This document shows positions 9,125-48,550 of a stretch of DNA of 64,000 nucleotides, piece after piece. Where the stretch lies: assembly GCA_024231955.1 (NCBI GenBank), contig JAAEPZ010000591.1, positions 98,453 through 162,452 on the forward strand. Reading direction: 5' to 3'. A program made the translations under genes and the position numbers. Below the pieces are notes generated by a model. It was not told the origin of the DNA and did no database searches. It saw only the letters and a program-made list of their open reading frames with translations. This stretch comes from a bacterium. Lineage in GTDB: Bacteria; Krumholzibacteriota; Krumholzibacteriia; JACNKJ01. Positions within the stretch are counted from its first letter, which is position 1, and every line of letters starts with the position of its first letter.

Positions 9125-9424
9125 ATGAGATACTGGCGAGTTCCACTAGACGCCGAAAAAGTCAAGATTCCCCGGGGCGAAATCCACCTGATTATCAATC
9201 GTTGTAAAGGCTGCGAGTTTTGCGTGGAGTTCTGTCCGCGCGATGTACTCGTCATGTCCAAGGATTACAATGTGAAGGGCTACCACTATCCCGAAGTGGC
9301 TGTCCCCGATCAATGCGTCAACTGCGATCTGTGCCAGGTGATCTGCCCCGACTTTGCAATCTTCTGTCTCCCTCAGGACGCAGAGGCCAAATCGGATGAG
9401 GAGGTGAAAGATGGAGAAGGCTGA
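9125..9424 (+). CDS. 2-oxoacid:ferredoxin oxidoreductase delta subunit (2x[4Fe-4S] ferredoxin)
   Basis: 99 aa. CKGCEFCVEFCP and CVNCDLCQVICP motifs. RBS GGAGAGGG upstream. First gene of a D-A-B-G operon. Confidence 0.85.
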   Translation: MRYWRVPLDAEKVKIPRGEIHLIINRCKGCEFCVEFCPRDVLVMSKDYNVKGYHYPEVAVPDQCVNCDLCQVICPDFAIFCLPQDAEAKSDEEVKDGEG

Positions 9425-10571
9425 TTCAAAGCGAGTTCTCACAGGCAGTCATTACCTTGACGGCGATCACGCCTGTACCGAGGGCGCGTTGGCGGCGGGA
9501 TGCAATTTCATCGCCGGCTATCCTATCACTCCGTCAACCGAGGTGGTTGAACGATACTCCCGCCGGATCCCTGCGATCGGCGGCACGTTCATTCAGATGG
9601 AGGATGAGATCGCGTCCATCACCGCAGTCCTGGGCGCCGTCTGGGGTGGTGCCAAGGCGATGACGGTGACCTCCGGCCCCGGGTTCAGTTTGATGATGGA
9701 GAACATCGGTCTGGCCGCGATGCTGGAGACCCCCTGCGTGATCGTCAACGTCATGCGCGGTGGTCCCTCCACGGGGTTGCCGACAATGGTCGGACAGGCG
9801 GATGTCATGCAGGCGCGCTGGGGATCCCATGGCGATTACGAGATCATCGCCCTTGCGCCGCAATCTCCGCAGGAGGCCTTCACGCTGATGATCGATGCCT
9901 TCAATCTGGCCGAGCGTTATCGACTGCCGGTGATGGTGATGCTCGACGAGTGCATCGGCCACATGACCGAGAAGGTCGTGATCCCCGAGGCGTGTGAAAT
10001 CGAGATTCGTCCGCGACGCATCTCCACCAAGGAGAAGGGTGAGTATTTGCCGTATGAGATCGGCGCCGACATGGTGCCCGACATGGCCCATGCCGGTGAG
10101 GGGCACCGGTACCACATCACCGGCCTGACGCACGATGAGCGGGGATATCCCGCCATGGACGCCGAGGTGCACGACAAGCTCGTACGCAGGTTGTGCGACA
10201 AGGTCCGTGAGCAGGCCGACGACATCATCATGCTCGATGAGGATGGTATGGATGGTGCGGAGATAGTGCTGATCTCCTACGGCATCACCTCCCGTGTGGC
10301 CCGCGCTTCGATTGAGGCCACCCGCGCGGCCGGGATCAAGGTCGGCAGCTTGCGTTTGCAGACCCTTTGGCCGTTCCCCGAAAAACGGATCGGCGAGTTG
10401 GCCGGCAAGGTGAAGGCGTTTGTCGTCCCCGAGGTCAATTACGGCCAGATCAGCCTTGAGGTCGAGCGGTGTGCCGCAGGTCGGGCGCAAACGCTCCTGG
10501 TTCCGCATATGGGTGGGGGCGTACACGATCCCGCCGTCATTACCCGGGCGATTGAGGAGGCTGCAAAATGA
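9411..10571 (+). CDS. 2-oxoacid:ferredoxin oxidoreductase alpha subunit (pyruvate/2-oxoglutarate family)
   Basis: 386 aa. GSHYLDGDHACTEGALAAGCNFIAGYPITPSTEV is the canonical POR/KOR alpha N-terminus. Overlaps the delta gene by 14 nt. Confidence 0.9.
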   Translation: MEKADSKRVLTGSHYLDGDHACTEGALAAGCNFIAGYPITPSTEVVERYSRRIPAIGGTFIQMEDEIASITAVLGAVWGGAKAMTVTSGPGFSLMMENIGLAAMLETPCVIVNVMRGGPSTGLPTMVGQADVMQARWGSHGDYEIIALAPQSPQEAFTLMIDAFNLAERYRLPVMVMLDECIGHMTEKVVIPEACEIEIRPRRISTKEKGEYLPYEIGADMVPDMAHAGEGHRYHITGLTHDERGYPAMDAEVHDKLVRRLCDKVREQADDIIMLDEDGMDGAEIVLISYGITSRVARASIEATRAAGIKVGSLRLQTLWPFPEKRIGELAGKVKAFVVPEVNYGQISLEVERCAAGRAQTLLVPHMGGGVHDPAVITRAIEEAAK

Positions 10572-11461
10572 GCGACGCCATGAAGCGAACCGATCAGCAT
10601 CCTCTGGACGATATTCTCCGCAGCGACCGCCTGCCGCATATCTGGTGCGCGACTTGCGGCATCGGCACCGTGGTCAAGTGTTTCGCCGAGGCGATCCAGC
10701 GAACCGAGATCCCGCTGGACGACGTTGCCGTCGTTTCGGGGATCGGTTGTACCGGTCGCGTGGCCGGCTACGTGAAATTGGATTCCTACCATACGACCCA
10801 TGGGCGGGCCATTCCCTTCGCCACGGGTTTGAAGCTGGCCAACCCCAGGCTCAAGGTCGTGGTGTTCAGCGGTGACGGCGATCTTTCCGCGATCGGTGGG
10901 AATCACCTGATCCATGCCGCCCGGCGCAATATGGACCTCACCGTCATCTGTGTGAACAACTTCATCTACGGCATGACGGGCGGGCAGGCGGCGCCGACGA
11001 CGCCGAACACCGCCAACACCTCGACGACCCCTTTCGGCGCGTTCGAACCGCCCTTCAATCTGCAGAAGCTGCTTGAAGCGTGCGGCGCCAGTTACCAGGC
11101 GCGCTGGACATCGCTGCATGTCCGGCGTCTGACCAACTCGATGACCGAAGCCCTGCTCAAACCGGGATTCAGTTTTGTCGAGGCGATCGCGCCCTGCTCC
11201 ACGCTCTACGCGCGACGCAACCGTCTGGGTAGCGGTTTCGACCTGATGAAGTTTTACCACGACAACAGCGAGATCCAGCATGGAGCCGATCCTCGTGAGG
11301 TGGATATCTCCTTCCAGGATTCAATCATCGTGGGCAAGTTCATTGATCGCGAGCGTCCGACCTGGCAGCAACTCAATGATGCACAGCACAACCGGTCCCT
11401 GGGCGAGAAGTACTTCCGCCACGACATTGTGGAGGCCGGTGGGGAGGTGAGCGATGCCTAG
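10568..11461 (+). CDS. 2-oxoacid:ferredoxin oxidoreductase beta subunit (TPP-binding)
   Basis: 297 aa. CxxC, GIGCTGR and GDGD TPP/Fe-S motifs (VVFSGDGD). ATGA overlap with the alpha gene. Confidence 0.9.
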   Translation: MSDAMKRTDQHPLDDILRSDRLPHIWCATCGIGTVVKCFAEAIQRTEIPLDDVAVVSGIGCTGRVAGYVKLDSYHTTHGRAIPFATGLKLANPRLKVVVFSGDGDLSAIGGNHLIHAARRNMDLTVICVNNFIYGMTGGQAAPTTPNTANTSTTPFGAFEPPFNLQKLLEACGASYQARWTSLHVRRLTNSMTEALLKPGFSFVEAIAPCSTLYARRNRLGSGFDLMKFYHDNSEIQHGADPREVDISFQDSIIVGKFIDRERPTWQQLNDAQHNRSLGEKYFRHDIVEAGGEVSDA

Positions 11462-11987
11462 AACCGAGATCCGGATCACCGGCTACGGCGGGCAGGGCGT
11501 TATCCTGACCGGCTACATCTTCGGCAGGGCGGCAGCGATCCATGCGGATCTGCACTCCACGATGACGCAGAGTTTCGGGCCGGAGGCGCGTGGCAGCGCC
11601 TGCAGCTCGGCTCTGGTCGTGGATGACGGCATAATCGCCTACCCCTACCTGAACGATACCGACGTACTGATCGCCCTCTCACGCGAGGGTTACGAGAAGT
11701 ACAAAGTGGAATTGAAGACGGGTGGGACGCTGATCTACGACAGTGACATGGTGCAGCCGCAGGATACGGGCGATGTACGGATGTACGGCGTCCCGGCGGC
11801 CCGCATCGCCGAGGAACTTGGCAATCGCATCGTGCAGAACATCGTTGTTGTCGGATTCACGACTGCCGTCACGGATCTGGTGGATGTCGAAGCGGTGAAA
11901 AAATCGGTCAAGGGTTCCGTGCCCAGCGCGCTGGTCGACATGAACCTGGAGGCCTTCAGAAAGGGTTATGAGTTCTATCAAAAGTAA
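11454..11987 (+). CDS. 2-oxoacid:ferredoxin oxidoreductase gamma subunit
   Basis: 177 aa. [20 protein letters not shown] is the POR/KOR gamma signature. 8-nt overlap with the beta gene. Confidence 0.9.
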
Positions 11988-14900
11988 AGGGATCTTGGTC
12001 ATCGGGGCCGGAATCACGGGAATACAGACCTCTCTTGATCTCGCGCACGCCGGGTTCCGGGTTCACCTGCTCGAACGTTCGCCCTCTATCGGCGGTCGGA
12101 TGAGTCAGTTGGACAAGGTATTCCCGACGGTCGACTGCTCTATATGAATCCTGGGTCCCTTGATGATGGATGCCGGTCGGCATCCCGGGATCGAATTGCA
12201 TACTCTCTCCGAGCTCACGGGGCTGCGCGGACGTGCCGGTGCCTTCAGAGCCACCGTCCGTAAGCATCCGCGTTATGTGGACCCGGAGCTGTGCGTTGCC
12301 TGCGGTCGTTGCACCGACGTGTGTCCGCAGGTGCGTCCGAATCCGTATGATATCGGACTGAAATCCGCGAAGGCCATCGACCGTCTGTTTCCTCAGGCCG
12401 TGCCCGCCGCCTATCACATCGATAAGGATGTCTGCCTCAACGACAACATTATGTACTGCGAGCGCTGTATCCGCGCCTGCGAGCCCGACGCGATCGATTT
12501 CGATCAACGCGAGGAGACGTTGGAGCTGGAGATCGGGTCGGTGATCGTGGCCACCGGTTTCGATGAACTCGATCCGCGCGAACTGCTCCCTTTTGGTTAC
12601 GGAAGTTCGCGCAATGTGCTGACCGGCCTGGAGTTCGAACGGCTGCTGTGCGCAACCGGACCGACCGGCGGGCACGTCGTGCGTCCCACCGATCTCAAGG
12701 TGCCGGAGCGTATCCTCTTCGTGCAGTGTGTGGGCTCTCGTGGTGAGGGGGGACGTTCCTACTGCTCCCGCTACTGTTGCATGAACTCCGTGAAGTCCGC
12801 GATGCTTGCCCACGAGCATGAACCGACTCTGAAGGGGAGCACGCTGCTCTTCACCGATATGCGCGCCGATGGGCGCGGCTACGATGCTTTCGTCGAGCGC
12901 TGCCTGGAGAGGGATCAGATCAGCACCATGCGGGGACGTCCGGCGAAGATCGAGGAGAACCCCGAGACGGGCGATCTGAGCGTCTGGGTCGAAGATTTCG
13001 AAGCCGGCAGGCCAACCCGCATCGAGGCGGGTATGGTCGTGCTCTCCTCTGCTGCCCTGCCCGCCGGTGGGACGCCCGAGCTGGGACGTATTCTGAGGAT
13101 CGAATTGGATGAAAGCGGTTTCGTCAAACGGAAGTGTCCGGACGAATCGCCGACCAAAACGACACGTCCCGGCATCTATGTGGCCGGCAGTGCCGGTTCA
13201 CCCGCAATAATCCCCGAGTGCGTGGCGCAGGGTGCCGCCGCCGCATCCGCCGCGAGTACACACGTCCTTGCCGAGCGCAACACGAAGGAGCAGGGTGAGC
13301 ATGTCGCTCCCATCGATTCCTCCGGTCCGCCGCGCATCGGCGTCTTTGTCTGCCACTGTGGAGCCAACATCGCAGGGGTGGTCAACGTTCAGGAGCTGCG
13401 CGAGGAGGCGGCGAAGCTGCCCGGCGTGGTCTATGCCGGGGATGAACATTTCGCCTGCGCCGAGATCTCCCAGAAGGTCATCGAAGAGGTGATCACCGAG
13501 CACAAGCTCAACCGTATCGTTGTCGCCGCCTGCACGCCGCGCACTCACGAACCGGTGTTCCGCGATGTCCTCAGTCGACGCGGTCTCAATCCCTTCCTGT
13601 TCGAGATGGTCAACATTCGCGATCAGTGCACCTGGGTGCATTCGGATGTGCCCGATGAGGCGCAGGCGCGCGCGCGTGATCAGATCCGTATGAGCGTGGC
13701 GCGCGCCGCGCGACTGGAGCCGCTGACTCCGATTCGGGTGGACGTCAATCGACGCGTCGTCGTGATTGGCGGCGGCATCTCCGGAATCCGCGTGGCGCTT
13801 GATCTGGCTGCGCAGGAGTTCGAGGTGACGCTGGTTGAGGTTGACGAGCAGATGGGGGGCGTGACGGCGAAGCTGGGTACGGCTGTCGGCGAACCCGGTC
13901 AAGCGCTGACCACGCTGAAGAGGCAACTGAAGCGCTCACCGGTCAGAGTGTTGCGGCAAACGGATATTGCCCGCGTTGATGGTTACGTCGGCAACTTCAT
14001 CCTAACACTCCACCCGGGCGAAGAGGAGTTGACCGCCGGTGCGATCGTGCTGGCGATCGGCGCCAAGCCGTACGATCCCACGGGACGGTTCGGTTTCGGA
14101 ACGAAGAGCAATGTCATTACTAATCTGGATCTCGAACGCCGCCTCAGGGATGAGAGTGATGTCCTCGGCGGAGGTGAGGGGGGTGTCCCGGCTACCGCGG
14201 TGATTATCCAGTGTGTCGGTTCCCGCTGCCGGGAGGAGGGGTGCAACCAGGGGTGCTCCCGCTACTGCTGCCCGTCGACGGTCAAACAGGCGCTCAAGCT
14301 GGCGGCGCTGGGTACGCGCGTTACGGTGCTCTATCGCGACATGCGCATGGTGGGGCCGGGTATGGAGGCCCTGTATCGCGAAGCCCGCGGAGCGGGTGTT
14401 CTGTTCGTGCGTGTTCCGGACGGTGGGCAAATGACGGTTGTCGGCGATACTCTGGCCGAGGCTGTCGTCGCCGATGACATGCTGCCCGACCGCGAGATTG
14501 AAGCGCCCGCCGAATTGGTGATCCTGGCCGTCGGGCTGGTTCCCGACAATGAGTTGATTTTGCGTATCAAGGAGCTCCTGAAGACTCCGGTTGGTCCCGA
14601 TGGCTTCCTGATGGAGCGTCATCCCGAACTGGGGCCGGTCGAAACTGTCGTGGACGGAGTATTCGTCTGCGGTACGGTCACCGGAGCCAAGTCGATTGCC
14701 GACTCCCTGGCCGAAGCCGGAGCTGCCGCGGGCAAGGTCAGCCGCCTGCTGTCGCGACAGGCGCTGACGCTGGAGCCGACCGTGGCCGAGGTTGATCGTC
14801 TGCTCTGCCGCGCGTGCGGCAAGTGTGTCGAGATCTGCGAGTATCAGGCCCCCTCCCTGGCTGATGACATGTTCGGTTTGCAGGCGGCGTCGATCAACAA

Positions 14901-15027
14901 GGCCTCCTGCAAGGGCTGCGGCACCTGCGTCTCCTGGTGTCCGACGGGAGCGATCAAGGCCTGCCACTTCACCGATGGTCAGATCGAGGCGATGATGGAA
15001 ACGATGCTGCAGTGGGAGAAGATGTGA
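11968..15027 (+). CDS. hdrA: Large HdrA-like flavoprotein (HdrL-type, two tandem HdrA-like halves) containing an in-frame UGA (selenocysteine) at 12145-12147
   Basis: ATG at 11968 in frame with track ORF 12160-15027. Translation [20 protein letters not shown]...[23 protein letters not shown]. The TGA sits where the second Cys of the conserved HdrA DCSxC motif belongs. Second half has the HdrA N-domain ([15 protein letters not shown]...CTPRTHEP) plus an FAD site ([10 protein letters not shown]) but no CxxU/CxxC motif. Ferredoxin CxxCxxCxxxCP motifs present. Confidence 0.8.
12168..12185 (+). promoter_or_regulatory. Putative bacterial SECIS hairpin 20 nt downstream of the UGA in hdrL
   Basis: GGAUGCC-GGUC-GGCAUCC: perfect 7-bp stem with a GGUC apical loop (G and U in the loop as in characterised bacterial SECIS). 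Identical element at the same spacing in the second hdrA. Confidence 0.5.
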
Positions 15028-15494
15028 ATAACAGCGATTTCGAACCGCGGATAGTGGTGTTTGCCTGCAACTGGTGTTCGTACGCCGGAGCCGATACGGC
15101 TGGCGTCAGCAGGTTGCAGCACTCGCCCAAATTCCGGGTCATCCGGACCATGTGTTCGGGGCGTGTCAATTCGGTGCATATCCTCAAGGCCTTCGAGATG
15201 GGGGCCGACGGAGTCCTGGTGTCCGGATGTCACATCGGCGATTGTCACTACATGTTCGGCAATCACTGGGCGATCAAGCAGTTCGATGTCACGCGCGATC
15301 TGCTCAACATGCTTGGCCTGGAGGAGGCGCGCACGCGGCTGGAATGGGTGTCTGCGGCGGAGGGTCCCAAGTGGGCCTCCCTGATCGATGAATTCGTGAC
15401 CACGATTCAGCAGCTCGGTCCCAGCCCGCTGCGGGGGGAATCCACCGAGGAGTCCTTCGGCGACCGTGAGATCGACATGGAGGTGAACGGGTAA
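15024..15494 (+). CDS. mvhD: MvhD/FlpD-family [2Fe-2S] protein (methyl-viologen-reducing hydrogenase delta-subunit-like)
   Basis: [19 protein letters not shown]...IRTMCSGRV...GADGVLVSGCHIGDCHY...LEWVSAAEG is the MvhD signature. Start is probably the GTG overlapping the hdrL stop (GTGA). The longer ATG 14937 start in the track would overlap hdrL by 90 nt. Confidence 0.7.
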   Translation: MNNSDFEPRIVVFACNWCSYAGADTAGVSRLQHSPKFRVIRTMCSGRVNSVHILKAFEMGADGVLVSGCHIGDCHYMFGNHWAIKQFDVTRDLLNMLGLEEARTRLEWVSAAEGPKWASLIDEFVTTIQQLGPSPLRGESTEESFGDREIDMEVNG

Positions 15495-16603
15495 TGGCGA
15501 ATACCGAATTGAAAGGGGCCATGCGCTGTCTGGACTGCGGTAAATGCACATCCGCCTGTCCCGTGGCGCGCTTCAATCTTGTCCTCTCTCCCCGGAGATT
15601 GATCCGGCAGCTCGGTTGCGGAGTGGATGCGGGTTGCGGCGACGCGCTCTGGTCCTGTCTGACCTGCGGCCGCTGTGATGCGGTTTGTCCGCAAGAGGTG
15701 CCGATCACCGCCGCCATGCCGCTGCTGCGCGCCGATGTGCGTGCGGAGGGGGGCAAGCCGCCCTTCACACGCTGCGGAGCGATGGAGAGCGTGGCGACGA
15801 TTCAGTCGCAGGGGCCCGTTCCCCAGAACCGGCTGGAGTGGCTCACCGACGACCTGCGCACCGACCCGGAGAGCAAAACGCTGCTCTTCATAGGCTGCAC
15901 CCCCTACTTCGACAAGTTCTTCGTCGAGCACGATGTCGATACCCTGGCGGCGGTGAAGGGGGCGATCCGGATTCTCAATGCAATGGGCATAGAGCCCGCC
16001 GTGCTGGCCGATGAGCGCTGTTGCGGACACGATGCACTCTGGTCCGGGGACGAAAAGACCTTCAGCGATCTGGCTCATCTGAATCTGGAGATGTTCGCCA
16101 AGGCCGCACCCGATCTGATCGTGACGGTCTGCCCGGAATGCTCACTGACCCTCGGGCGCACCTACCCGGAACGTTTTGAAGCGCCCGGCTGTCCGGTCAA
16201 ACACATCACCGAGGTGGTCTCGGAGCATTACGAGGAGCTGGAGTTCACCGCACGCGAGCTGACGGTGACTTTCCAGGATCCATGTCGATTGGGGCGTCAT
16301 CAGGATCTGTATGTCGAGCCGCGCGAGGGGCTCGAGATGATTCCCGACCTCGAACTGAGAGAGATGCCGCGGAATAGGGCGGCAGCCGTTTGTTGCGCGG
16401 GCTCATGGCTCACCTGTAATCAGGCGAGCAAGAAGATTCAATCCGATCGCCTCGCGGAGGCAGAGGCGACCGGGGCGGAACTGATGGTGACGGCCTGTCC
16501 CAAGTGCCTGATCCATTTCCGCTGCTCTCAATCCGGCGTCGGGGAGGAGCCCGGGATCGAGATCCGGGACTTCGCAGACCTGCTCGCCGAGTCACTGCAA
16601 TAG
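15494..16603 (+). CDS. HdrD-like Fe-S oxidoreductase (HdrC-type 2x[4Fe-4S] domain fused to HdrB-type CCG domains)
   Basis: 369 aa. N-terminal [12 protein letters not shown] and [12 protein letters not shown] motifs. C-terminal CCG motifs (ERCCGHD, CCAGSW). 1-nt TAATG overlap with mvhD. Confidence 0.7.
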
Positions 16604-16625
16604 AGGAGGAAAGGAGGTGAACCGT

Positions 16626-19055
16626 ATGCCGAAAGCTCTACCCCGTATAGGAGTCTTCGTTTGCGATTGCGGCTCGAACATAGCCGGAACCGTGGACACC
16701 CAGGCGGTAACCGATTACGCCACCACTCTGCCCGGAGTCGTCGCGGTAGTGAGGAACAAGTACACGTGCGCCGAACCTGGACAGCAGGAGATCAAGAAGG
16801 CGATCGTGGAGGAGAAGCTGGAGCGTGTCGTCGTGGCGTCCTGTACGCCGCGGATGCATGAGCCGACTTTCCGTGGATGTGTCTGGGATGTCGGTTTGAA
16901 CCCCTATCTCATGGAGATGGCGAATCTTCGTGAACACTGTTCCTGGGTGCATGGAGACGACAAGGAGGGCGCCACCGCCAAGGCCAAGGATCTGGTTGCC
17001 AGCGCAGTCGCGCGTGCAGCCAAACTCGAGGCTCAGGAGGAGGCTGTCTTCCCGGTCACCAAAGCGGCGCTGGTGATCGGTGGAGGCATTACCGGGATTC
17101 AGGCCGCCATGGATCTGGCGGACGCCGGTCATCAGGTCTATCTGGTCGAGAAGGAGGCGAGTATTGGCGGGATCATGGCCCAGCTTGACAAGACCTATCC
17201 CACCATGGACTGCTCGATATGAATTCTCGGACCAAAGATGATGGATGCCGGTCGGCATCCCCTGATCAAATTGATGAGTTACAGCGAGATTGAGGACGTC
17301 AATGGTTACGTCGGCAATTTCAAGGTTACGGTTCGCAAGAAGGCGCGCTACGTGGACGAAACCGTCTGCAACAGTTGCGGTGAGTGCGAGAAGGTGTGTC
17401 CCGCAATCCATCCGGACGAGTTCCAGATGGGGTTGGCGACACGGAAGGCTGTGCACCTGCCCTTCCCGCAGGCCGTGCCGTCGGCCTACCTGATCAACAT
17501 GGAGAATTGCCTGGGCACGAATCCCATCGCCTGCGGCAAGTGCGCCGAGGTCTGCGAGAAGAATGCCATCAACTATGATATGCAGGATGAGATCGTCGTC
17601 CTGGATATAGGTGCGATCGTGGTGGCGACGGGGATCGATGTCTACGATCCCACGCAGCAGGATGAATACGGCTATACGCGATTCCAGAACGTGATTACGA
17701 GTATGGAGTTCGAGCGGCTTATCTGTGCTGGAGGGCCGACGGTCGGCCATCTGGTGCGGCCGGGTGATCACACCACGCCGCTGCGGATCGGTTTCATCCA
17801 GTGTGTCGGTTCCCGTTCGCTGCGCGATGGGGCGGGTTTCTGCAGCAACATCTGCTGCATGAACACGGTCAAGGATACGCTGCTGATTCGCGATCATTAT
17901 CCCGACGCCGAGTGCTCGGTCTTCTATATCGACATCCGCGCGTTCGGTAAGGGATTCGAGGATCTTTACGACAAGAGTCGCGAGGCCGGCGTCAAGTACA
18001 TCCGCGGTATTCCGGGTGAGATTACGGAGGACCCCGCCACCGGCAATCTGCGCATGGTGGTGGAGAACACGACTACGCGGTCGATCGAGGAGCACGAGTT
18101 CGACATGATTGTGCTGTCGGTCGGTGTGCGGCCCCGAGCGGACGGCGGCGATATCCGTCGACATTTGACGCTGTCGCAAACCTCCGATGGTTTTCTGATG
18201 GAGGCCCATCCCAAGCTCAAGCCGGTGGACGCGCCGACGCGCGGCGTGTATATCGCGGGTTGCGCCGAAGCACCGAAGGACGTCAAGGAGAGCGTGACCC
18301 AGGCCAGCGCCGCTGCGGCGAGGGCGGGCGTATTGCTCAATGCGGGGAAGGTGACCGTGGAGGCGATCACCTGTACCATCGACAATGATCTCTGTCACGG
18401 TTGCGGAGCCTGCGAAAAGGTCTGCCCCTATGGAGCGATCACCGTGGATAAGGGGGCAAAAACGGCAGCGGTGGTTGAAGCCGCCTGTGCCGGATGCGGC
18501 ACCTGTGGTTCCGCTTGCCGATTCGATGCGATCACGATGCGGCATTTTACGGATGCGCAGATCGTGGCCCAGGTCGACGCCCTGCTGGCGGAGCGGCAGA
18601 GCGGGAAGGTTATCGTCTTCGCCTGCAACTGGTGCTCCTATGCAGGGGGCGATACCGCAGGCACGAGCCGCATGCTTTATCCCGCGAGTAATCGTTTGAT
18701 CCGTACGATGTGCAGCGGGCGAATCTCCGAGGAGTTCGTGCTGCGCGCGTTCCGCAAAGGGGCGCCGATAGTGCTGGTTTCCGGTTGCCACTTCGCGGAT
18801 TGCCACTACATCGACGCAAACCGTCAAACAGTCAAACGTGTTTATCGCTTGTGGAAGCAGTTGGAGAAGCTGGGGATTCGCACCGAACGGCTGCAGTTGG
18901 AATGGATCAGCGCGGCCGAGGGTCCCAAATTCCAGAAGACGATGCGCGAGATGGAGGAGTTGCGTGCCCAGGTGACCCAGGAGGAGATCGATCACACCGT
19001 GAAGGTGTTGACCGAGCAATTCGAGAAGCGTCGCCTGAAAAAAGTGAGGAGCTGA
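16626..19055 (+). CDS. hdrA: HdrA flavoprotein with C-terminal fused MvhD domain, containing in-frame UGA (selenocysteine) at 17220-17222
   Basis: Track ORFs 16617-17222 and 17238-19055 share a frame and are separated only by TGA. Translation ...[30 protein letters not shown]. Canonical HdrA N-domain ([22 protein letters not shown]), FAD site ([17 protein letters not shown]), ferredoxin motifs. C-terminal MvhD block ([18 protein letters not shown]...[11 protein letters not shown]). AAGGAGG RBS 8 nt before ATG 16626; GTG 16617 also possible. Confidence 0.8.
17243..17260 (+). promoter_or_regulatory. Putative bacterial SECIS hairpin 20 nt downstream of the UGA in hdrA-mvhD
   Basis: Same GGAUGCC-GGUC-GGCAUCC hairpin as at 12168-12185, at the same 20-nt distance from the UGA. 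Confidence 0.5.
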
Positions 19056-19059
19056 CGGC

Positions 19060-19224
19060 ATGGAAAAGATGTGGGTGTTCAAGTGTCAGCGCTGCGGTTG
19101 TGATTATCAGGAGGTCTACGACCCCAAGGCGGCGCTGCGGGAGAGATCCTGCCCGCAGTGTCGCTCCAACAGCGTGCGCCCGTTGCACGATGTCGATTCG
19201 ACGAAAAGACAGGCGAAGGGATAA
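19060..19224 (+). CDS. Small zinc-ribbon protein (54 aa, two CxxC pairs) between hdrA and hdrC; absent from the ORF track (<60 aa)
   Basis: ATG 5 nt after the hdrA stop. Translation MEKMWVFKCQRCGCDYQEVYDPKAALRERSCPQCRSNSVRPLHDVDSTKRQAKG. Stop TAA at 19222-19224, 6 nt before hdrC. Confidence 0.45.
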   Translation: MEKMWVFKCQRCGCDYQEVYDPKAALRERSCPQCRSNSVRPLHDVDSTKRQAKG

Positions 19225-19230
19225 GCGACG

Positions 19231-19731
19231 ATGAAGGAGAAAAAACGGGTGCGGATCAGTCATGATTTCCGAGAGCAGTTGGGGCTTGTGCTCGAGGGGG
19301 ATGGCGTCAATTACTGTTACCAGTGCGGTGCCTGCGTGGGGGACTGCCCCACCGCCCGCTTCAGTGAGGATTTCAACCCGCGGACCATCATGCAGTCCGT
19401 TCTCTATGGCCTGAAAGAGGAGATCGCCTCGGATACGCTGCCTGTCTGGATGTGCTCCAATTGCTTCACCTGTTTTGACCGCTGCCCGCAAGAGGTCAAG
19501 CCGATTGAGGTGATCATCGCCCTCAAGAATCTGATGGCGAGTGAGGGGATCGTTCCGAAAGGTGTGGAGGCGGCTGCTGCAGGTATCCTGAAAACGGGGC
19601 GCAGCGCGATAGTGTCCAATACCACCGTACGTCGTCGTGAGGAGTTGGGACTGCCGCCCCTGGAGGAGCTGGATGCCGGGGAATTACGTACCCTTCTGGA
19701 TGCGGACGCAAATGGGGAGGGGGAAAAATGA
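19231..19731 (+). CDS. hdrC: Heterodisulfide reductase subunit C (2x[4Fe-4S])
   Basis: 166 aa. CYQCGACVGDCP and CSNCFTCFDRCP motifs with the HdrC-type helical C-terminal part. Confidence 0.85.
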   Translation: MKEKKRVRISHDFREQLGLVLEGDGVNYCYQCGACVGDCPTARFSEDFNPRTIMQSVLYGLKEEIASDTLPVWMCSNCFTCFDRCPQEVKPIEVIIALKNLMASEGIVPKGVEAAAAGILKTGRSAIVSNTTVRRREELGLPPLEELDAGELRTLLDADANGEGEK

Positions 19732-20591
19732 AGCTGGCCTTCTTTCCCGGATGCATGATTCAGGTGAGATTCCCGCAGATGGAGGCGGCGGTGCGGAAAA
19801 CCGCGCCGGCGCTCGATGTCGAGTTGATAGACCTGCCTGGACTTGGCTGTTGTCCTGACCCCGTCTTCTTTAAATCGCTGCACAAACTTGATTGGTTGAC
19901 CCTTGCCGCCCGCAACCTGGCGATCGCCGAGCAGGCGGGACTCGATTTCGTCACGATCTGCAGCGGATGCACCGAGACGCTGGCGGAGGCCTCCCATCTG
20001 CTCAATGATGATGCTGATCTGCGCGGACAGGTAAACGAACGTCTGCACAAAATCGGCATGGAGTACAACGGTGGAGTGGCGACGCGTCATCTGATCACCG
20101 TGTTGCGGGACAATCTGGGGTTCGAACGGCTGACTGCTTCGGTGACTCGTCCTCTGACCGGTTTGCGTGTTGGAGTGCACTACGGTTGTCATCTACTAAA
20201 GCCGCGTAAGATCATGCAAGTCGATGATCCGGATCACCCCACGGTGTTCGAGGATATGCTGCGGGCCATCGGCGCCGAGCCTGTCGATCATGTGGAGCGG
20301 GTGATCTGCTGCGGCAAATCGTGCCGCGATTGCAACTTGCCTGAGGAGATGACATTGACGGTATTGAGATCGCTCAAGACGGCAGAGGTCGACATGATGG
20401 GGGTGATTTGCCCATCGTGTTTCGATTCCTTCGATATCGGGCAGATCAAGATCTCCCGCAAACACAAGCTGGGCTACACAATCCCGCCCGTCTACTACTT
20501 CCAGTTGCTTGCGTTGGCTCAAGGGCTGACGCCGGCAGAGGTCGGATTGGACAAGCATAAGATCAAGTCGGAGAGACTGCTGACTTTGTAG
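19728..20591 (+). CDS. hdrB: Heterodisulfide reductase subunit B (two CCG domains)
   Basis: 287 aa. N-terminus MKLAFFPGCMI...GLGCCPDP and CCGKSCRDCN are CCG-domain signatures. ATGA overlap with hdrC. Confidence 0.85.
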   Translation: MKLAFFPGCMIQVRFPQMEAAVRKTAPALDVELIDLPGLGCCPDPVFFKSLHKLDWLTLAARNLAIAEQAGLDFVTICSGCTETLAEASHLLNDDADLRGQVNERLHKIGMEYNGGVATRHLITVLRDNLGFERLTASVTRPLTGLRVGVHYGCHLLKPRKIMQVDDPDHPTVFEDMLRAIGAEPVDHVERVICCGKSCRDCNLPEEMTLTVLRSLKTAEVDMMGVICPSCFDSFDIGQIKISRKHKLGYTIPPVYYFQLLALAQGLTPAEVGLDKHKIKSERLLTL

Positions 20592-40748: not shown

Positions 40749-40803
40749 ACCCGAAGGCTCATCCGTTAGGTGGATCGCAATCGCATTCAACGGGAGCCGT
40801 ATT

Positions 40804-41190
40804 TTGGTGAATTCGGATAATTCACCTGTTGCCTTGCGAGTGATCTCCCCCGAAAGGTTGGTCCGGGACATGCGGAAGATACTCGTCGAAACCGAGCGGC
40901 TGCTGATCAGACGTCCCGAAGAGGGGGGTCGCCGCTGCTATGAGCGGCTCTTCTGCGACCCGGTCATGATGCGCCATCTCGGAAGCGTCTGGCCCTCCGA
41001 GCAGGTTCAGGAGGCGCTCGCCGAGTGGCGCGAGGTCTGGGGCAGCGACAACCGCTGGTACGGTACCCTCCTGCTGAAGGACACGCTGGAGCCGATCGGC
41101 GCTGCCGGGATACGAAACTCAGGTCCTGTGGGAGATGACCTCGGAGCAAAGTCAGCGGGGGCAGAACCGCGTTGTGAGGTCATCAGATGA
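40804..41190 (+). pseudogene. Truncated GNAT (RimJ/RimL-like) acetyltransferase fragment
   Basis: N-terminal LVETERLLIRRPEE and following block match the N-terminal half of ribosomal-protein-alanine acetyltransferases. The ORF ends after about 128 aa, short of the acetyl-CoA binding motifs, and runs into a low-GC non-coding stretch. Confidence 0.4.
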
Positions 41191-41519
41191 GAATGGAGAG
41201 ATAGAGAACTCATCCCAGCGGTGAACTTGTGGACTGTCTAACCTGATCGGCAACACACCTCTTCTCGCTATCCAATTTCTACTCAGTTCCCGGTGCGCGA
41301 GGTCTTTATGGGCAAAGATCCTCGGCACATTTAACTGATAACGAATTTTGCTCGAACTCGAACGGCTATAGCGGCCTATAGAGCTACTGACACACGTAAC
41401 CAAATCCCATATTGGGCCCGATTTGAGAATCCACAATCATTGGAGCAGAATCAACTAGCCATACTGCGCATGAAAATCGTAGACATAGTAGATTCGCCTA
41501 TATGGATTGAGAGGTTCTT

Positions 41520-42068
41520 ATGTCCAGGAGAATGATTGCCTGTGCCGCTCTGGCCGCCATCGGCATCGCGTTCGGTTGTGTCTCCCTGCTCGTATATCTG
41601 TCCAATGGTCATCCCCGACTCATCGCCCGCAAACTCAAATTGGGCGCAATCATCCTGTCGCTGACGGCCATGCTCGGCACCGCCTGCACCACGCCATCCC
41701 GGGTCACATGCTACATGCCTGCACCGCCGGATAGAGTTGCCGTCGATCCGGATGCCTTCGTCGACAACGTGATCTGGCTCGTTCTGGCGGAGAGCAATGA
41801 GATCGCGGGGACGATTCTGGATCGCGACTCGAGCGAGTTCTCCTTTTGCTTGATCGATGCTGAGGTGTCGGTGATTCAGGAGGGGGAGCTTGCGGCGCAA
41901 GATGGAGCAATGGACGAAGCGGAGGAGGAGTTCACGATCGTTATCGATCCCGGTACGCCGGTGGGTGGTTATGCCCTCCGTTTCTACTCCGTCCCAATGG
42001 CTGAAATCGTCATTGGCAATTACATCGCGGAGTTCCCGGTCGAGATCCGTGAGACGTCCGGAAGATGA
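41520..42068 (+). CDS. Hypothetical membrane-anchored protein, translationally coupled to the downstream radical SAM gene
   Basis: 182 aa. Two N-terminal hydrophobic helices and an acidic C-terminal half. ATGA overlap with the rSAM gene start. Confidence 0.5.
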   Translation: MSRRMIACAALAAIGIAFGCVSLLVYLSNGHPRLIARKLKLGAIILSLTAMLGTACTTPSRVTCYMPAPPDRVAVDPDAFVDNVIWLVLAESNEIAGTILDRDSSEFSFCLIDAEVSVIQEGELAAQDGAMDEAEEEFTIVIDPGTPVGGYALRFYSVPMAEIVIGNYIAEFPVEIRETSGR

Positions 42069-43108
42069 GCGTCAAAACCCGGCTTCCGGCGATCACCCTG
42101 GAACTGACCGGCGCGTGCAATCTTGCCTGCAGCTATTGCTACAATCACTGGCGTGTACCGGGGCAGGAGCTCCCGGACGGTCGAACTCCCGACTACGGGC
42201 AGGTGAGACGCACGGTCAAAGCCCTGTATCGGCAGGTCGATGTGCGGCAGATCGCAATGACGGGTGGCGAGCCCTTTCTCTTCGAACGTTTGCCGGAGAT
42301 CGCCTTGACCTGCAGGCTCAAGGGCTCCGCCGTGGCGGTGATCAGCAACGGCAGCATCGCCGACAGAGGGCGTTACGACGAATTGATCCGCATCGGCATC
42401 GACCTCTTTGAGTTCCCGATACACTCCGCCACCTCAGCGATTCACGATTCCCTGACGAATACCCCCGGCTCCTGGAGCAAGGCCCGCGAATCCCTGGAAC
42501 AGGTGATCGAGCTGGGTGCGCGCGGGGTGGCTGTGATCGTCCTCACGCGGCGGAATGTCGTCGGGTTGGGGGACACACTTCGCCTGTGTCGCGAATTGGG
42601 CGTGGATTCAGTCATGCTCAATCGTTTCAACATCGGAGGACGCGGCATCGCCGAAGCGCACAGGCTGCAGCCGGATGCCGCGCAACTGCACCAGTCTCTC
42701 CGTGTGGCCGATACCGCCGTCACGGAGCTCGGCCTGAAGATCAGTTCGAATGTCTGCACTCCCCATTGCCTTGTCGATCCGCATGACTATCCCCGCCTGG
42801 GTTTTTCGAACTGCGAAGTCGATGTGCGGCAAAGACCGCTGACCCTGAACTGGCGGGGCGACCTGCGCTTCTGCAACCATTCGCCTGTGATCATGGGCAA
42901 TATCCACCGGCAATCCCTGAACGAGATATTCGCCTCCGATTACGCCACGCTCTGGCGGCAGGCTCGCCCGGTATTTTGCGCGGACTGTCACCGCTTCGAA
43001 CGCTGCGCCGGCGGTTGCCGCGCTGCCGCCGAGCAACTGGGGGGGACGCCGGCCGACCCGGATCCGGTTCTGGAGATGTCGGGTACGAAAGCACCAGGAT
43101 CGGCGTAA
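42065..43108 (+). CDS. Radical SAM enzyme with C-terminal SPASM/twitch domain (anSME/peptide-maturase family)
   Basis: 347 aa. CNLACSYC (Cx3Cx2C) near the N-terminus. C-terminal CTPHC...C...CADCHRFERCAGGC auxiliary-cluster motifs. Confidence 0.8.
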   Translation: MSVKTRLPAITLELTGACNLACSYCYNHWRVPGQELPDGRTPDYGQVRRTVKALYRQVDVRQIAMTGGEPFLFERLPEIALTCRLKGSAVAVISNGSIADRGRYDELIRIGIDLFEFPIHSATSAIHDSLTNTPGSWSKARESLEQVIELGARGVAVIVLTRRNVVGLGDTLRLCRELGVDSVMLNRFNIGGRGIAEAHRLQPDAAQLHQSLRVADTAVTELGLKISSNVCTPHCLVDPHDYPRLGFSNCEVDVRQRPLTLNWRGDLRFCNHSPVIMGNIHRQSLNEIFASDYATLWRQARPVFCADCHRFERCAGGCRAAAEQLGGTPADPDPVLEMSGTKAPGSA

Positions 43109-45090: not shown

Positions 45091-46701
45091 TCAGTACATC
45101 GCCTTGATGGCGCTCCAACTCTTCGTCTCTGTACTGGTCTCGTTGCAGTTGGTGCTCCGTGCTCCGATGAGCAATCCGCAGGTTGAGTTGGTCTGGGCGC
45201 AGGGGGAATCGCTCTGTAGATAGACGTTGCCGTCTACGGCGTTCGTGCCGCAGAACTGCGGATCGGATGAGAAGTTGTTGCTTATGGTCGCCTGATCCTC
45301 GATTCCGCCCGCCCAGTTTCCGCCGCTGTTGTTCCAGATATCCGAACACGTGAATGTGATCTGGGAATCGCCGTCCTGGTAAACAGCGCCGTTTTGCCAG
45401 GTATACGCCACGATACAGCACACTAGGTTGAGCGATGCCGTGTGGTAGGTGCAGATCGATCCTCCGTCCTGCGCCGCGGTGTTGTAGGTGAAGGTGCAAT
45501 TCGCCAGAGTAGCCGTCGAGGTCCACTCGCTGTAGAAACCGCCGCCCCAGCCCGCTACGTTGTTGTGGAAGACGCAATTCTCGAACCTCGGATTCTGGTT
45601 GCTCCAGTTCGCCACCGCTCCCCCCTCGAAGGGGCAGTTGTTCCGCAGAAAGAGGCAACCGGTGACATCCGCATCGGCATCCACGTCGATGCCGAGTCCC
45701 GCGCCGCCTATCCAATCGATCCCCGTGGGTGTGAGGTTGTCGCGGAACTCGCAATTGGTGATGGTCGTGGTGCCGGTGCCGTCGCAGTAAACGCCGCCGC
45801 CGTAGTTGGAGATGTTGTTCAGGAAGTCGACACCGCTGAGAGTGGGGGAGGAGCTGTCCCAGATGTACACGCCGCCACCCAGTCCGTACTCGCCGAGCTG
45901 CGCCTCGTTGGCCGAGAACGTGCCCCCCGTAACGTTGGGGGAGGCGCCGTTGAGGCAGTACATCCCGCCGCCGAAACGGGCGATGTTCTGCCCGAAATTG
46001 CAGTTCGTGATATTTGGGTTCGATCCGTCGCAGACAAGTCCGCCGCCGGAACTGCCGGTGGTGTTGCCCGTGAAGGTCACATTGGTCAGTGCGGAGAGGC
46101 AGTCTTTGAAGACCAGCCCGCCGCCGTCCGTGACCGCGGAGTTGCCCGTGAACGTACACAGGTCGAAGCTCACCTCGCAGGCGTCTATATAGCAGCCGCC
46201 CCCCTGACCCTGATCGTCCGCCAGTTCCGACGTCGCCGAGTTGTTCGTGAAGATGCAACCTGTGAAATTGACGGAGCTGGTGGGCATCGTATAGACGGCG
46301 CCCCCTTTGTTGAAGGCCGAGTTGTCTTCGAAATGGCAGTTGGTGACCTGGAGGTTCCCGTCGACGAACAGGGCGCCGCCGAACGAGGTGTCGCCCCCGA
46401 TCAGGTGCAGGTTGTCCAGGTATCCCGAGCTGCCGGACTCATCGAAGATGATGGCGCGGCCTAGCCCCCGGGCATCGATCGTCACGTTGTCCGTGCCGCC
46501 CGGTGCGCCATTGAGGTGAACGCCCGGCGGCAGGGCCAGATTGTATTCGTTGTAGGTTCCCGAGGCGAGCAGAACGGTGTCGCCGTAGCTGGCTGCGGCC
46601 AGCCCCGCCGCCGTCGTCGGCTGTTCTGAGGGGACATGGATCGTGGTTGCGCAGGCGGTGGTGGCCAGCAGCATCAGACTGACGAGAATTCCTGTCTTCA
46701 T
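45091..46701 (-). CDS. Secreted right-handed parallel beta-helix repeat protein (paralog A)
   Basis: Start at ATG 46701 (MKTGILVSLMLLATTACA signal) with GGGAGG RBS. Numerous G-rich beta-helix repeats (GGG.Y / N.F..N). C-terminal tail CGLLIGARSTNCNETSTETKSWSAIKAMY is shared with the paralog. Confidence 0.7.
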   Translation of the reverse strand: MKTGILVSLMLLATTACATTIHVPSEQPTTAAGLAAASYGDTVLLASGTYNEYNLALPPGVHLNGAPGGTDNVTIDARGLGRAIIFDESGSSGYLDNLHLIGGDTSFGGALFVDGNLQVTNCHFEDNSAFNKGGAVYTMPTSSVNFTGCIFTNNSATSELADDQGQGGGCYIDACEVSFDLCTFTGNSAVTDGGGLVFKDCLSALTNVTFTGNTTGSSGGGLVCDGSNPNITNCNFGQNIARFGGGMYCLNGASPNVTGGTFSANEAQLGEYGLGGGVYIWDSSSPTLSGVDFLNNISNYGGGVYCDGTGTTTITNCEFRDNLTPTGIDWIGGAGLGIDVDADADVTGCLFLRNNCPFEGGAVANWSNQNPRFENCVFHNNVAGWGGGFYSEWTSTATLANCTFTYNTAAQDGGSICTYHTASLNLVCCIVAYTWQNGAVYQDGDSQITFTCSDIWNNSGGNWAGGIEDQATISNNFSSDPQFCGTNAVDGNVYLQSDSPCAQTNSTCGLLIGARSTNCNETSTETKSWSAIKAMY

Positions 46702-46858
46702 CTCGACTTCCTCCCGGTGGGTGTATATCACAAATGTAGCATGTTTGGCTTGTGCAGGGGAAGGGGGGGAGTCTGTAACCACAGTTTATCTGGGATATCG
46801 ATAAAGAAAGAGAGGGTGTCCGAGCCCCCCTCTCTCAATGCGTGATATCGAATTCGGA

Positions 46859-48550
46859 TCAGTACATCGCCTTGACCGCACTCCAGCTTGTCGCCTCGGT
46901 GCTGGTCTCATTACAATTGATGCCCAATGCGCCGACTATCTGACTGCATCCGGCCACAGCCGCCGTGCAGGGCGAGTCGCTCTGCAAATAGAAATTGGTC
47001 GTGCCGGCAACGCCGCAGAACTGGGGGTTCGCGGAGAAGTTGTCGTCGGTTGTCGCCTGTGATTCGATTCCGTCGACCCAATCGCCGCCCGCATTGTTCC
47101 AGAGGTCGCAGCAGACCAGATTGATCGTCGAATCCGATTCCCGATGGACCGCGCTGCCGGCTCCGCTGTCGCAGATGATGCTCCGATTCAGGTCGACGGC
47201 GGCCCCGGTCCAGACGCTGATGCCGGCGCCGTCGGCGGCGTCCGTCACCTCGTTGCGCACCATCGTGCAACTGGTGAAGACTGCGGTGGAGTTGTTCTCA
47301 CCGTAATACGCCCCACCCCATCTCCCCGTGTTGTCATGGAAAATGCAGCTGGTGAATTCGGGGGTGCCGGTGCTCCAGTTGCCGATCGCTCCACCCATAT
47401 AGGTGGTGGAGTTGCTCTTGAAGGTGCAGGCGGTCGCCGTTAAATGTGCCGTACCCATGATGCAGGCGGCGCCGCCGCCCTGCGCTGTCTCGGAGCTTGC
47501 CGACTGGTTGCTTTCGAAACGGCAGTTGTCGAAGTGCGGTGTGCTCCCTGCGTTGCTGCAGACGGCGCCGCCCCAGACTGCCTGATTGGTGATGAAACGG
47601 ACATCCTCGACCGTAGCGGAGGCCGTATCCTCCAGATAGAGTCCACCTCCGTAGCCGTAGCTGCCCGCAGCGGCCGTGTTGCTCGACCAGGTGCCGCCGG
47701 TGATCGTCGGGGCGCTGCTGCCCCCGCCACTGTGTTCAACGGACATCGCCCCGCCCCAGTCGGCCGTGTTGAGCGCAAAGCCGCAATCGGTGATGGTCGG
47801 GCTGGAGTTGTAGCACATCAACCCGCCGCCGCCGTCGTTGGCGGCGTTGCCTGTGAAGTTGGTATGGTCCAATGTGGAGACCACCGCATCCAGAAGATAG
47901 ACTCCGCCGCCGCTGTAGACCGCATTATTGTCCGAGAATGTACAGAGTGACAGACCGAGGTTGACGGCCTCGGCATAGATGCCGCCGCCGTTGGTGTTCG
48001 TGGTGTTGCCGGTGAATGAGCAGCCATTGAAAACGGGGGAACCACCCGTTGCGATATAAACCCCGCCACCGGACCAGCCATTGTTCTCCGTGAACTCGCA
48101 GCCGGTGAAGGTCGGGTCGGCCGACGAGTCAAGAGCCAACCCGCCGCCGTGAGTCGACGCCTGATTGCCGATGAGGACACACAGCGAGACCTCGATGGGG
48201 GAGTTGGTCAGGTACATGCCCCCCCCTTCTGAGGTGGAGCCGCCGGTCAGAGTCAGGCCGAGGATACTTGTGGAACCGGCCAGGTCGCTGCCATGGATGC
48301 ACCTGCCTTGACCGTTGGCGTCGATGGTTACATCCTGTGCGTCACCGGTGGCGCTCCGGAGGCAAACGCCCGACTTCATCTCCAGATCGTGTTCGGTGTA
48401 ATTGCCGGTGGAGATGCTGACCGTATCGCCACTGACGGCGACTGTCAGCGCCGCCGCGATTGTCGGTTGCTCATCCGGCACATTGATCGTGGCTGCGCTG
48501 CCGACGGAGGCCAGCAGAAGTACGAGACCGCAGAATATCATACTCTTCAT
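46859..48550 (-). CDS. Secreted right-handed parallel beta-helix repeat protein (paralog B)
   Basis: 563 aa. Signal MKSMIFCGLVLLLASVGSA, AAGGAAGG RBS. Same repeat architecture and C-terminal CSQIVGALGINCNETSTEATSWSAVKAMY tail. Confidence 0.7.
   Translation of the reverse strand: MKSMIFCGLVLLLASVGSAATINVPDEQPTIAAALTVAVSGDTVSISTGNYTEHDLEMKSGVCLRSATGDAQDVTIDANGQGRCIHGSDLAGSTSILGLTLTGGSTSEGGGMYLTNSPIEVSLCVLIGNQASTHGGGLALDSSADPTFTGCEFTENNGWSGGGVYIATGGSPVFNGCSFTGNTTNTNGGGIYAEAVNLGLSLCTFSDNNAVYSGGGVYLLDAVVSTLDHTNFTGNAANDGGGGLMCYNSSPTITDCGFALNTADWGGAMSVEHSGGGSSAPTITGGTWSSNTAAAGSYGYGGGLYLEDTASATVEDVRFITNQAVWGGAVCSNAGSTPHFDNCRFESNQSASSETAQGGGAACIMGTAHLTATACTFKSNSTTYMGGAIGNWSTGTPEFTSCIFHDNTGRWGGAYYGENNSTAVFTSCTMVRNEVTDAADGAGISVWTGAAVDLNRSIICDSGAGSAVHRESDSTINLVCCDLWNNAGGDWVDGIESQATTDDNFSANPQFCGVAGTTNFYLQSDSPCTAAVAGCSQIVGALGINCNETSTEATSWSAVKAMY

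Follow-up and report, generated by a model that had tools for sequence, protein, structure and literature searches.

A probable selenocysteine codon with a conserved SECIS-like hairpin in an HdrL-type gene and in a nearby hdrA-mvhD fusion of a Krumholzibacteriota contig

The 64,000-nt stretch of DNA analyzed here (hereafter the window) is part of a Krumholzibacteriota genome (NCBI GenBank assembly GCA_024231955.1, contig JAAEPZ010000591.1, positions 98,453 to 162,452 of the forward strand) and carries on its plus strand, at positions 11968 to 15027, a gene of the HdrA family that we refer to as hdrL. Its coding sequence (CDS) is a single HdrA-type frame of 1019 codons with a TGA at 12145-12147 as its sole interruption, the open reading frames (ORFs) 11968-12147 and 12160-15027, whose starts lie 192 nt apart, sharing one frame; the assignment is supported by the continuity of the frame, by Pfam domains, by a match to the crystallized HdrA 5odc_A and by the NCBIfam model NF040770. 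The TGA is codon 60 and would encode the last residue of the motif C57-S-I-U60 (CxxU), where U stands for a putative selenocysteine (Sec), and a phmmer alignment against the PDB places this column on Cys197 ("DCSIC") of 5odc_A. GenBank divides the gene between a 59-aa "NAD(P)-binding protein" (MCP4548176.1) and a protein of 954 aa that begins with MMDAGRHP (MCP4548177.1), both on the same 362,156-nt contig. An earlier, sequence-only reading of this DNA had proposed that one frame is broken here by the TGA alone, that the TGA replaces the second Cys of the HdrA motif DCSxC and that an automated gene caller would report two fragments, and all three proposals hold.

The UGA at 12145-12147 is very probably a Sec codon within one continuous 1019-residue flavo-iron-sulfur protein of the HdrA family, built as an HdrL-type fusion. 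We favor this reading because of the alignment with the solved structure, the alternation of TGA and Cys codons across homologous sites, the co-occurrence of a downstream hairpin with the TGA and the covariation within the stem of that hairpin. With respect to the genetic code, TGA is an ordinary stop in 19 of the 39 confident genes of the window, indicating that the code is standard and that the recoding is site specific. An altered code in which UGA is read as Trp or Gly was rejected on the same count, as well as by the identity of the aligned residue, which is Cys.

We compared the window with 80 loci, taken from one genome per species, which together provide 121 DCxx[C/*] sites. The sequence-only reading had supposed that the TGA would fall on a conserved Cys among HdrA homologs, and this is borne out, since the column holds either TGA (41 sites) or TGC/TGT (80 sites) at every one of the 121. 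Bacterial sites are divided between TGA (36) and TGC/TGT (25), while archaeal sites are mostly TGC/TGT (55), with TGA at five sites, all from Asgard archaea. None of the 36 bacterial TGA sites has a stop among the codons upstream of the UGA (54 codons at 35 of them and the 44 available at locus L007), and these codons encode the Rossmann GxGxxG...E FAD motif, with 27 to 39 residues identical to those of the window hdrL. A protein started after the TGA would consequently be without its FAD fold. Downstream of the UGA, the peptide ILGPxxxDAGRHP is conserved. Furthermore, about 116 of the best 120 database homologs of HdrL cover just 91 to 94% of the query, and 9 of the 11 homologs that we inspected start with M(M)D[AV]GRHP, that is, at the first Met past the TGA. 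The two inspected homologs that are full length (P0062 and P0092) have Cys at the column, in the motifs TNDCSICIF and TNDCSLCIL, respectively.

The UGA of hdrL is followed by a hairpin that we interpret as the upper part of a Sec insertion sequence (SECIS). It spans 12168-12185 on the plus strand, begins 20 nt past the TGA and consists of a perfect 7-bp stem (GGAUGCC at 12168-12174 and GGCAUCC at 12179-12185) closed by the loop GGUC (12175-12178), exactly as the sequence-only reading had described it; the same nucleotides encode (M)DAGRHP. Folded alone, the 18-nt hairpin has a free energy of -11.5 kcal/mol. The consensus model of bacterial SECIS (bSECIS) elements allows an apical loop of 3 to 9 nt, an upper stem of 4 to 16 bp, a G at loop position 1 or 2, with G or U as the usual next nucleotide, a distance of 16 to 37 nt from UGA to loop and a minimum free energy (MFE) of at most -7.5 kcal/mol (PMC13188914). 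With its 4-nt loop, its 7 bp, its folding energy and a UGA-to-loop distance of 27 nt (12148-12174), the hdrL hairpin falls within every one of these limits, and it also resembles bacterial SECIS elements in lying inside the CDS shortly 3' of the UGA. An optional lower stem around the upper hairpin (12154-12192, plus strand), formed by GGUCCC at 12154-12159 and GGGAUC at 12187-12192, is seen with its six pairs in both the MFE and the centroid folds of the window sequence and is not kept in the consensus of the 36 bacterial TGA sites, so its relevance is uncertain.

Across the homologs, the presence of the hairpin follows the TGA codon. Among the 36 bacterial TGA sites, 35 have it in the register +24 to +41, counted from the U of the UGA, 34 of these with six or more contiguous pairs from the loop; the 25 bacterial Cys sites and the five archaeal TGA sites are all without it. 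The loop is GGUC at 29 of the bacterial TGA sites, GGUA at four and another sequence at three, and the 60-nt segment folds there with a mean MFE of -17.7 kcal/mol, against -11.2 kcal/mol at the sites used for comparison. RNAalifold, run on the 36 sequences, predicts the SECIS upper helix and nothing else.

We also observe covariation at two pairs of the stem. In the register-true alignment, 94.8% of the cells are paired, compared with 32 to 54% when the 3' arm is slid, and the covariation score was reached by none of 500 shuffles. Pair 27-38 changes from U-A to G-C in 10 sequences, and pair 29-36 changes from C-G to U-A in five and to U-G in another five, without any C-A combination (counts 25/0/5/5; Fisher P = 0.0008, uncorrected for phylogeny). 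This second pair joins the second position of an Ala/Val codon to the synonymous third position of an Arg codon, a pattern that selection at the protein level would not readily produce. A variant stem, (G)GAGGCC-GGUC-GGUCUC(C), which encodes VEAGRSP rather than MDAGRHP, occupies about the same register (+24 to +41) in ten loci labeled Thermodesulfobacteriota, Deferribacteres or Proteobacteria (L016, L017, L018, L023, L043, L045, L055, L059, L060 and L079); relative to the stem of the window, it combines a compensatory U-A to G-C change with a G-C to G-U change. Locus L013 provides a natural Sec/Cys control: in its hdrL (L013:6160), the codon is TGC, the hairpin is missing and the peptide reads LVEALRHP, and a second hdrA in the same kor-hdr operon (L013:11141) has retained both TGA and hairpin. 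Taken together, the co-occurrence of hairpin and TGA, the covariation and the alignment with Cys197 uphold the core of the sequence-only reading, a Sec-encoding UGA followed by a bacterial SECIS, and the resemblance to bacterial SECIS elements that it had claimed is likewise found at the level of the consensus model, without the specific features of the Escherichia coli fdhF element that are described below.

The five archaeal TGA sites belong to an additional HdrA-like gene of Asgard archaea (Promethearchaeota; L021:193, L028:200, L032:165, L052:147 and L074:170), in which the TGA lies in the context DDC[SA]I*ICGP. Archaeal SECIS elements are usually located in the 3' untranslated region, and, as expected from such a location, a hairpin within the CDS downstream of these five TGA codons was not found.

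A second site of the same kind, which the sequence-only reading had left unnoticed, lies about 5 kb downstream of the hdrL UGA. ORFs 16617-17222 and 17238-19055 are in one frame, and the resulting gene (16617-19055, plus strand), which is broken only by a TGA at 17220-17222, encodes an HdrA with N-terminal Fe-S, FAD, inserted ferredoxin and C-terminal ferredoxin domains, fused to MvhD. The TGA is a putative Sec codon in the context DCSI-U-ILGP, and it is followed at 17243-17260 by a second SECIS hairpin, GGAUGCC GGUC GGCAUCC, identical in sequence and in its 20-nt spacing to that of hdrL. With U read as C, HdrA-MvhD reaches 1147.5 bits on NF040770, more than the 1100 bits required, and covers positions 1 to 776 of the 777 positions of the model, which characterizes the predicted product as a bona fide HdrA2-type member.

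Several results weigh against a Sec codon with a functional SECIS. The z-scores of the hairpin fold against dinucleotide shuffles are only -0.49 and -1.13 and not significant, and a loose SECIS pattern (TGA, a gap of 16 to 37 nt, a 7-bp stem and a G[G/U]NN tetraloop) occurs 12 times on the two strands of the window, whereas shuffles give 5.5 on average and at most 12. Rfam returned no SECIS and no other meaningful match, either at gathering thresholds over the whole window or at a permissive E-value over 12100-12260. In the SECIS of E. coli fdhF, the 5' arm has a bulged U17 and the minimal stem-loop lies 11 nt from the UGA (PMC8659212), whereas the hdrL stem is without a bulged U and its spacing is 20 nt. 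In addition, selA, selB, selD and tRNA-Sec were all absent from the 64-kb window (ARAGORN, Rfam and translations), nor did ARAGORN detect a tRNA-Sec in the flanking sequences of 26 related loci. Taken by itself, the window sequence does not set the hairpin apart from chance. Its weight rests on its position and on the comparison across loci; among the 12 matches to the loose pattern, only those at 12145 and 17220 are in frame within a conserved gene.

At a distance of 26 nt from the true stop of hdrL, a TGA at 15025-15027, the start region of mvhD contains a weak stem of 7 bp that is rich in G-U pairs and closed by a GUGG loop (about 15054-15071). As a candidate SECIS, this match was rejected and judged a chance occurrence, given that all homologs terminate there.

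Among the alternatives, a genuine split of the gene would have translation stop at the UGA and re-initiate at AUG-AUG (12163), yielding a 59-aa FAD-binding protein and a 954-aa protein that associate noncovalently, with the hairpin acting as a pausing or re-initiation signal. The two Met codons 15 nt after the hdrL TGA and the GenBank gene model are in agreement with such a split, but the downstream Met is not conserved, and several TGA-type homologs read ILGPKAIDAGRHP without a Met. The break would also bisect the Rossmann/FAD domain at a metal-binding or redox-active position that is occupied by Cys in 80 homologs, and the hairpin fits the SECIS model, including the G-G/U signature of its loop (PMC13188914), in a family that is a documented selenoprotein (PMC1794560, PMC13518236). 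We therefore regard two separately translated proteins as very unlikely.

A recoding of the UGA to Cys or to another residue, by a Cys-charged tRNASec-like tRNA, by near-cognate read-through or under selenium limitation, would agree with the Cys found at the aligned position in homologs and with the absence of selD and selA from the window. This is countered by the hairpin, a SelB-type structure whose conserved G-U loop is a signature of the canonical Sec pathway, by the use of TGA as a normal stop here and by the observation of U197 as Sec in the HdrA of Methanococcus maripaludis (PMC13518236), and we attach very little probability to it. A pseudogene, a nonsense mutation or an error in sequencing or assembly at the TGA, for which the split in the automated annotation and the lack of Sec machinery in the window could be cited, is hardly credible with the same TGA at 36 bacterial sites from many phyla and twice in the window, with intact and conserved upstream ORFs, with a co-occurring hairpin and with nearly all of the best homologs truncated at the same point.

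With respect to the architecture of HdrL, its product (U read as C) matches 5odc_A (E = 2.8e-188) and 8rvu_a (E = 1.5e-182) in phmmer searches against the PDB, the match to 5odc_A being divided into three permuted pieces. HdrL residues 10-378 correspond to 147-510 of the 5odc_A chain (the thioredoxin-reductase-like FAD domain with its inserted ferredoxin), residues 454-624 to 3-173 (the HdrA N-terminal Fe-S domain) and residues 834-1013 to 472-649 (the end of the FAD domain and the C-terminal ferredoxin). The best NCBIfam model is again NF040770 (HdrA2), with 934.7 bits distributed over three permuted stretches and under the 1100-bit cut-off, which indicates that hdrL is, by its predicted product, a rearranged relative of HdrA.

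Two modules can be recognized. Module 1 (aa 1 to about 440) comprises the thioredoxin-reductase-like FAD domain, the CxxU site and the inserted ferredoxin domain and is without the N-terminal domain. Next, at residues 454-590, the N-terminal Fe-S domain of HdrA occurs as an internal copy (motif VCHCG...AACTPR), and module 2 (aa 596-1019) is composed of a second FAD/NAD-type domain without DCSxC and the C-terminal 2x[4Fe-4S] ferredoxin domain. Pfam finds Pyr_redox_2 and Fer4 domains in HdrL, with FAD_binding_2, Pyr_redox and Pyr_redox_2 at residues 596-908, and CVGSR...C..YCS.YCC motifs are present in both modules. Residues 625-700, the place where the DCSxC of module 2 would be expected, contain zero cysteines. 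From its predicted sequence, HdrL is thus best described as a fusion of two HdrA-like modules. Such a complementary pattern of modules is known for fused or tandem HdrA proteins, where it has been interpreted as a built-in heterodimer (PMC9012536), and HdrL also has the features that Strittmatter et al. 2009 (PMC2702500) give for proteins of this name, namely large size, solubility, HdrA-like sequence, extra dinucleotide-binding regions of the fumarate-reductase/NADH type and an mvhD gene next to it.

Following the established bacterial pathway, the hairpin inside the CDS, 20 nt past the UGA, would be bound by SelB-GTP-Sec-tRNASec, and a ribosome arriving at the UGA would insert Sec in place of release by RF2; the same recoding would take place at 17220, at the equivalent residue of HdrA-MvhD. 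We infer Sec insertion and SelB binding at both sites by analogy with this pathway. Since the hairpin also encodes DAGRHP, the RNA structure and the peptide would be constrained together.

Judging from published HdrA structures, the CxxU motif of Sec60 would be equivalent to Cys194/Cys197 of methanogen HdrA. Sec60 could then ligate the [4Fe-4S] cluster of the N-terminal domain or form a redox-active Cys-Sec bridge adjoining that cluster, and it would be placed on the low-potential branch that leads from the bifurcating FAD. In HdrA, Cys197 is a ligand supplied in trans to the [4Fe-4S] cluster of the N-terminal domain (PMC9012536), and in the cryo-electron microscopy structure of M. maripaludis HdrA, U197 is situated between cluster A3 and the FAD, apparently in a Cys-Sec bond (PMC13518236). 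The sequence-only reading had placed the selenium next to the bifurcating FAD and the Fe-S centers; this calls for a correction, in that the residue is located on the path from FAD to the N-terminal-domain cluster and not simply beside the FAD (PMC13518236, PMC9012536). Because module 1 has the Sec without the N-terminal domain and module 2 shows the reverse, Sec60 probably serves the internal N-type domain in cis, which would make HdrL a pseudo-heterodimer.

The two Sec sites are part of a larger gene cluster on the plus strand. Directly upstream of hdrL are the kor genes (9411-11987) for a 2-oxoacid:ferredoxin oxidoreductase (OFOR), with an alpha subunit at 9411-10571 (NF006412, 561 bits, above the cut-off), a beta subunit at 10568-11461 and a gamma subunit at 11454-11987, the latter two with NCBIfam matches below the cut-off; the gamma gene overlaps the start of hdrL by 20 nt. 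This synteny of the kor genes with hdrL is kept in 14 related loci. Downstream of hdrL follow mvhD (14937-15494, with an uncertain start at 14937 or about 15021; NF045873 VhuD, 110 bits) and an HdrD/TfrB/GlpC-like gene with Fe-S and CCG domains (15494-16603; NF004898 TfrB, 3.1e-42, and partial HdrC/HdrB matches). Both belong to known Sec families and are present here as uninterrupted Cys forms. Beyond hdrA-mvhD, hdrC (19231-19731; TIGR03290, 108.5 bits) and hdrB (19728-20591; TIGR03288, 284.6 bits) complete the cluster, each identified by a best match that remains below the cut-off.

This nine-gene order, korA-korB-korG-hdrL-mvhD-hdrD-like-hdrA/mvhD-hdrC-hdrB (9411-20591 in the window), recurs among the compared loci, usually with both Sec sites. 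It is fully conserved in L001, L004, L006, L008, L010, L011 and L020. In L002, L005, L009, L012, L013 and L080 it is conserved in part, as far as the contig or locus extends. The loci with the operon are labeled Planctomycetota, Gemmatimonadota, Thermoanaerobaculia, Caldithrix, "Deltaproteobacteria" or unclassified, and a quick literature search gave no description of a kor-hdrL-hdrA cluster. The nine genes presumably encode an OFOR-linked bifurcating Hdr complex. A more specific proposal, which we regard as possible but rather doubtful, is a doubly Sec-dependent bifurcating or confurcating complex that would connect 2-oxoacid oxidation or synthesis, by way of low-potential ferredoxin, to a heterodisulfide or DsrC-like acceptor, with HdrL as a pseudo-heterodimer in which the selenolate of Sec60 would ligate the [4Fe-4S] cluster of the internal N-domain in cis.

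Elsewhere in the window, we observe several loci apart from this cluster. An enzyme of the radical-SAM/SPASM type is encoded at 42065-43108, in translational coupling with a 182-aa protein that has a membrane anchor (the pair spanning 41520-43108); about 770 nt (40750-41520) without a convincing gene precede the pair, and this may be a peptide-maturation locus. On the minus strand, 45091-48550 encodes a tandem pair of secreted paralogs, each of 563 aa and rich in Gly, Asn and Thr, whose sequences look like parallel beta-helix repeats and end in a common C-terminal tail, ...SWSA(I/V)KAMY. Also on the minus strand, 60705-63977 encodes a 1090-aa subtilase-like protein with a C-terminal tail resembling a sorting domain. 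The 563-aa paralogs and the subtilase-like protein are hints of a Fibrobacteres-Chlorobi-Bacteroidetes (FCB)-group-like host with type IX-like secretion.

The finding is a correct re-annotation of an unannotated member of a known selenoprotein family, and the phenomenon itself is already known; it leaves the knowledge of HdrA and of Sec decoding unchanged. It goes modestly beyond the textbook in that a single SECIS sequence has been kept widely across phyla and between paralogs and in its distinctive operon context. The locus strengthens the case for a wide occurrence of Sec-HdrA, with its single and nearly invariant SECIS, beyond the classic Deltaproteobacteria and Firmicutes, and it cleanly illustrates how the peptide motif DAGRHP and a signal in the RNA constrain one another. 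There is also a practical side to it: hdrL, its neighbor and most of their relatives have been deposited as N-terminally truncated "HdrA family" proteins together with orphan 59-aa "NAD(P)-binding proteins", and, as a result of these truncated deposits, metabolic models of anaerobes that are built on metagenome-assembled genomes (MAGs) systematically mis-score domain architecture, the reconstruction of operons and the dependence on selenium.

HdrA is one of the standard selenoprotein families of prokaryotes, characterized by the motif CxxU and represented by the model NF040770 (PMC13188914). Multiple copies of Sec-HdrA, as well as hdrA-hdrA fusions, have been described in Syntrophobacter, Syntrophus and Moorella (PMC1794560), and Desulfobacterium autotrophicum has Sec-containing HdrA1/A2 and HdrL1/L3 (PMC2702500). 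We compared the locus with the known Sec-HdrA of M. maripaludis, Syntrophobacter fumaroxidans, Syntrophus aciditrophicus, Moorella thermoacetica and D. autotrophicum. It shares with this family the domain family, the CxxU motif, the Cys197 column and the clustering with mvhD and hdrBC. It differs from the classic Sec-HdrA of Deltaproteobacteria and Firmicutes in that its closest relatives with the same operon come from MAGs of the Planctomycetota, Gemmatimonadota, Acidobacteriota and Calditrichota type, and from the known Sec-HdrA in that its operon starts with a 2-oxoacid:ferredoxin oxidoreductase and not with a hydrogenase or formate dehydrogenase. HdrL resembles, by description, the HdrL of D. 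autotrophicum HRM2, which is likewise a large and soluble fusion of the HdrA-like kind, has an additional Rossmann module of the FAD/NAD(P) type and is encoded next to mvhD on its downstream side. It is also similar to fused double-HdrA proteins, such as HdrA3/4 of anaerobic methanotrophic archaea (ANME) and the HdrA of the MetFV-HdrABC-MvhD complex of Moorella thermoacetica, in which the Cys197/Sec and the N-terminal domain are likewise carried by complementary modules. Unlike in ANME HdrA3/4, however, the order of the modules is reversed, the module that bears Sec197 coming first in HdrL.

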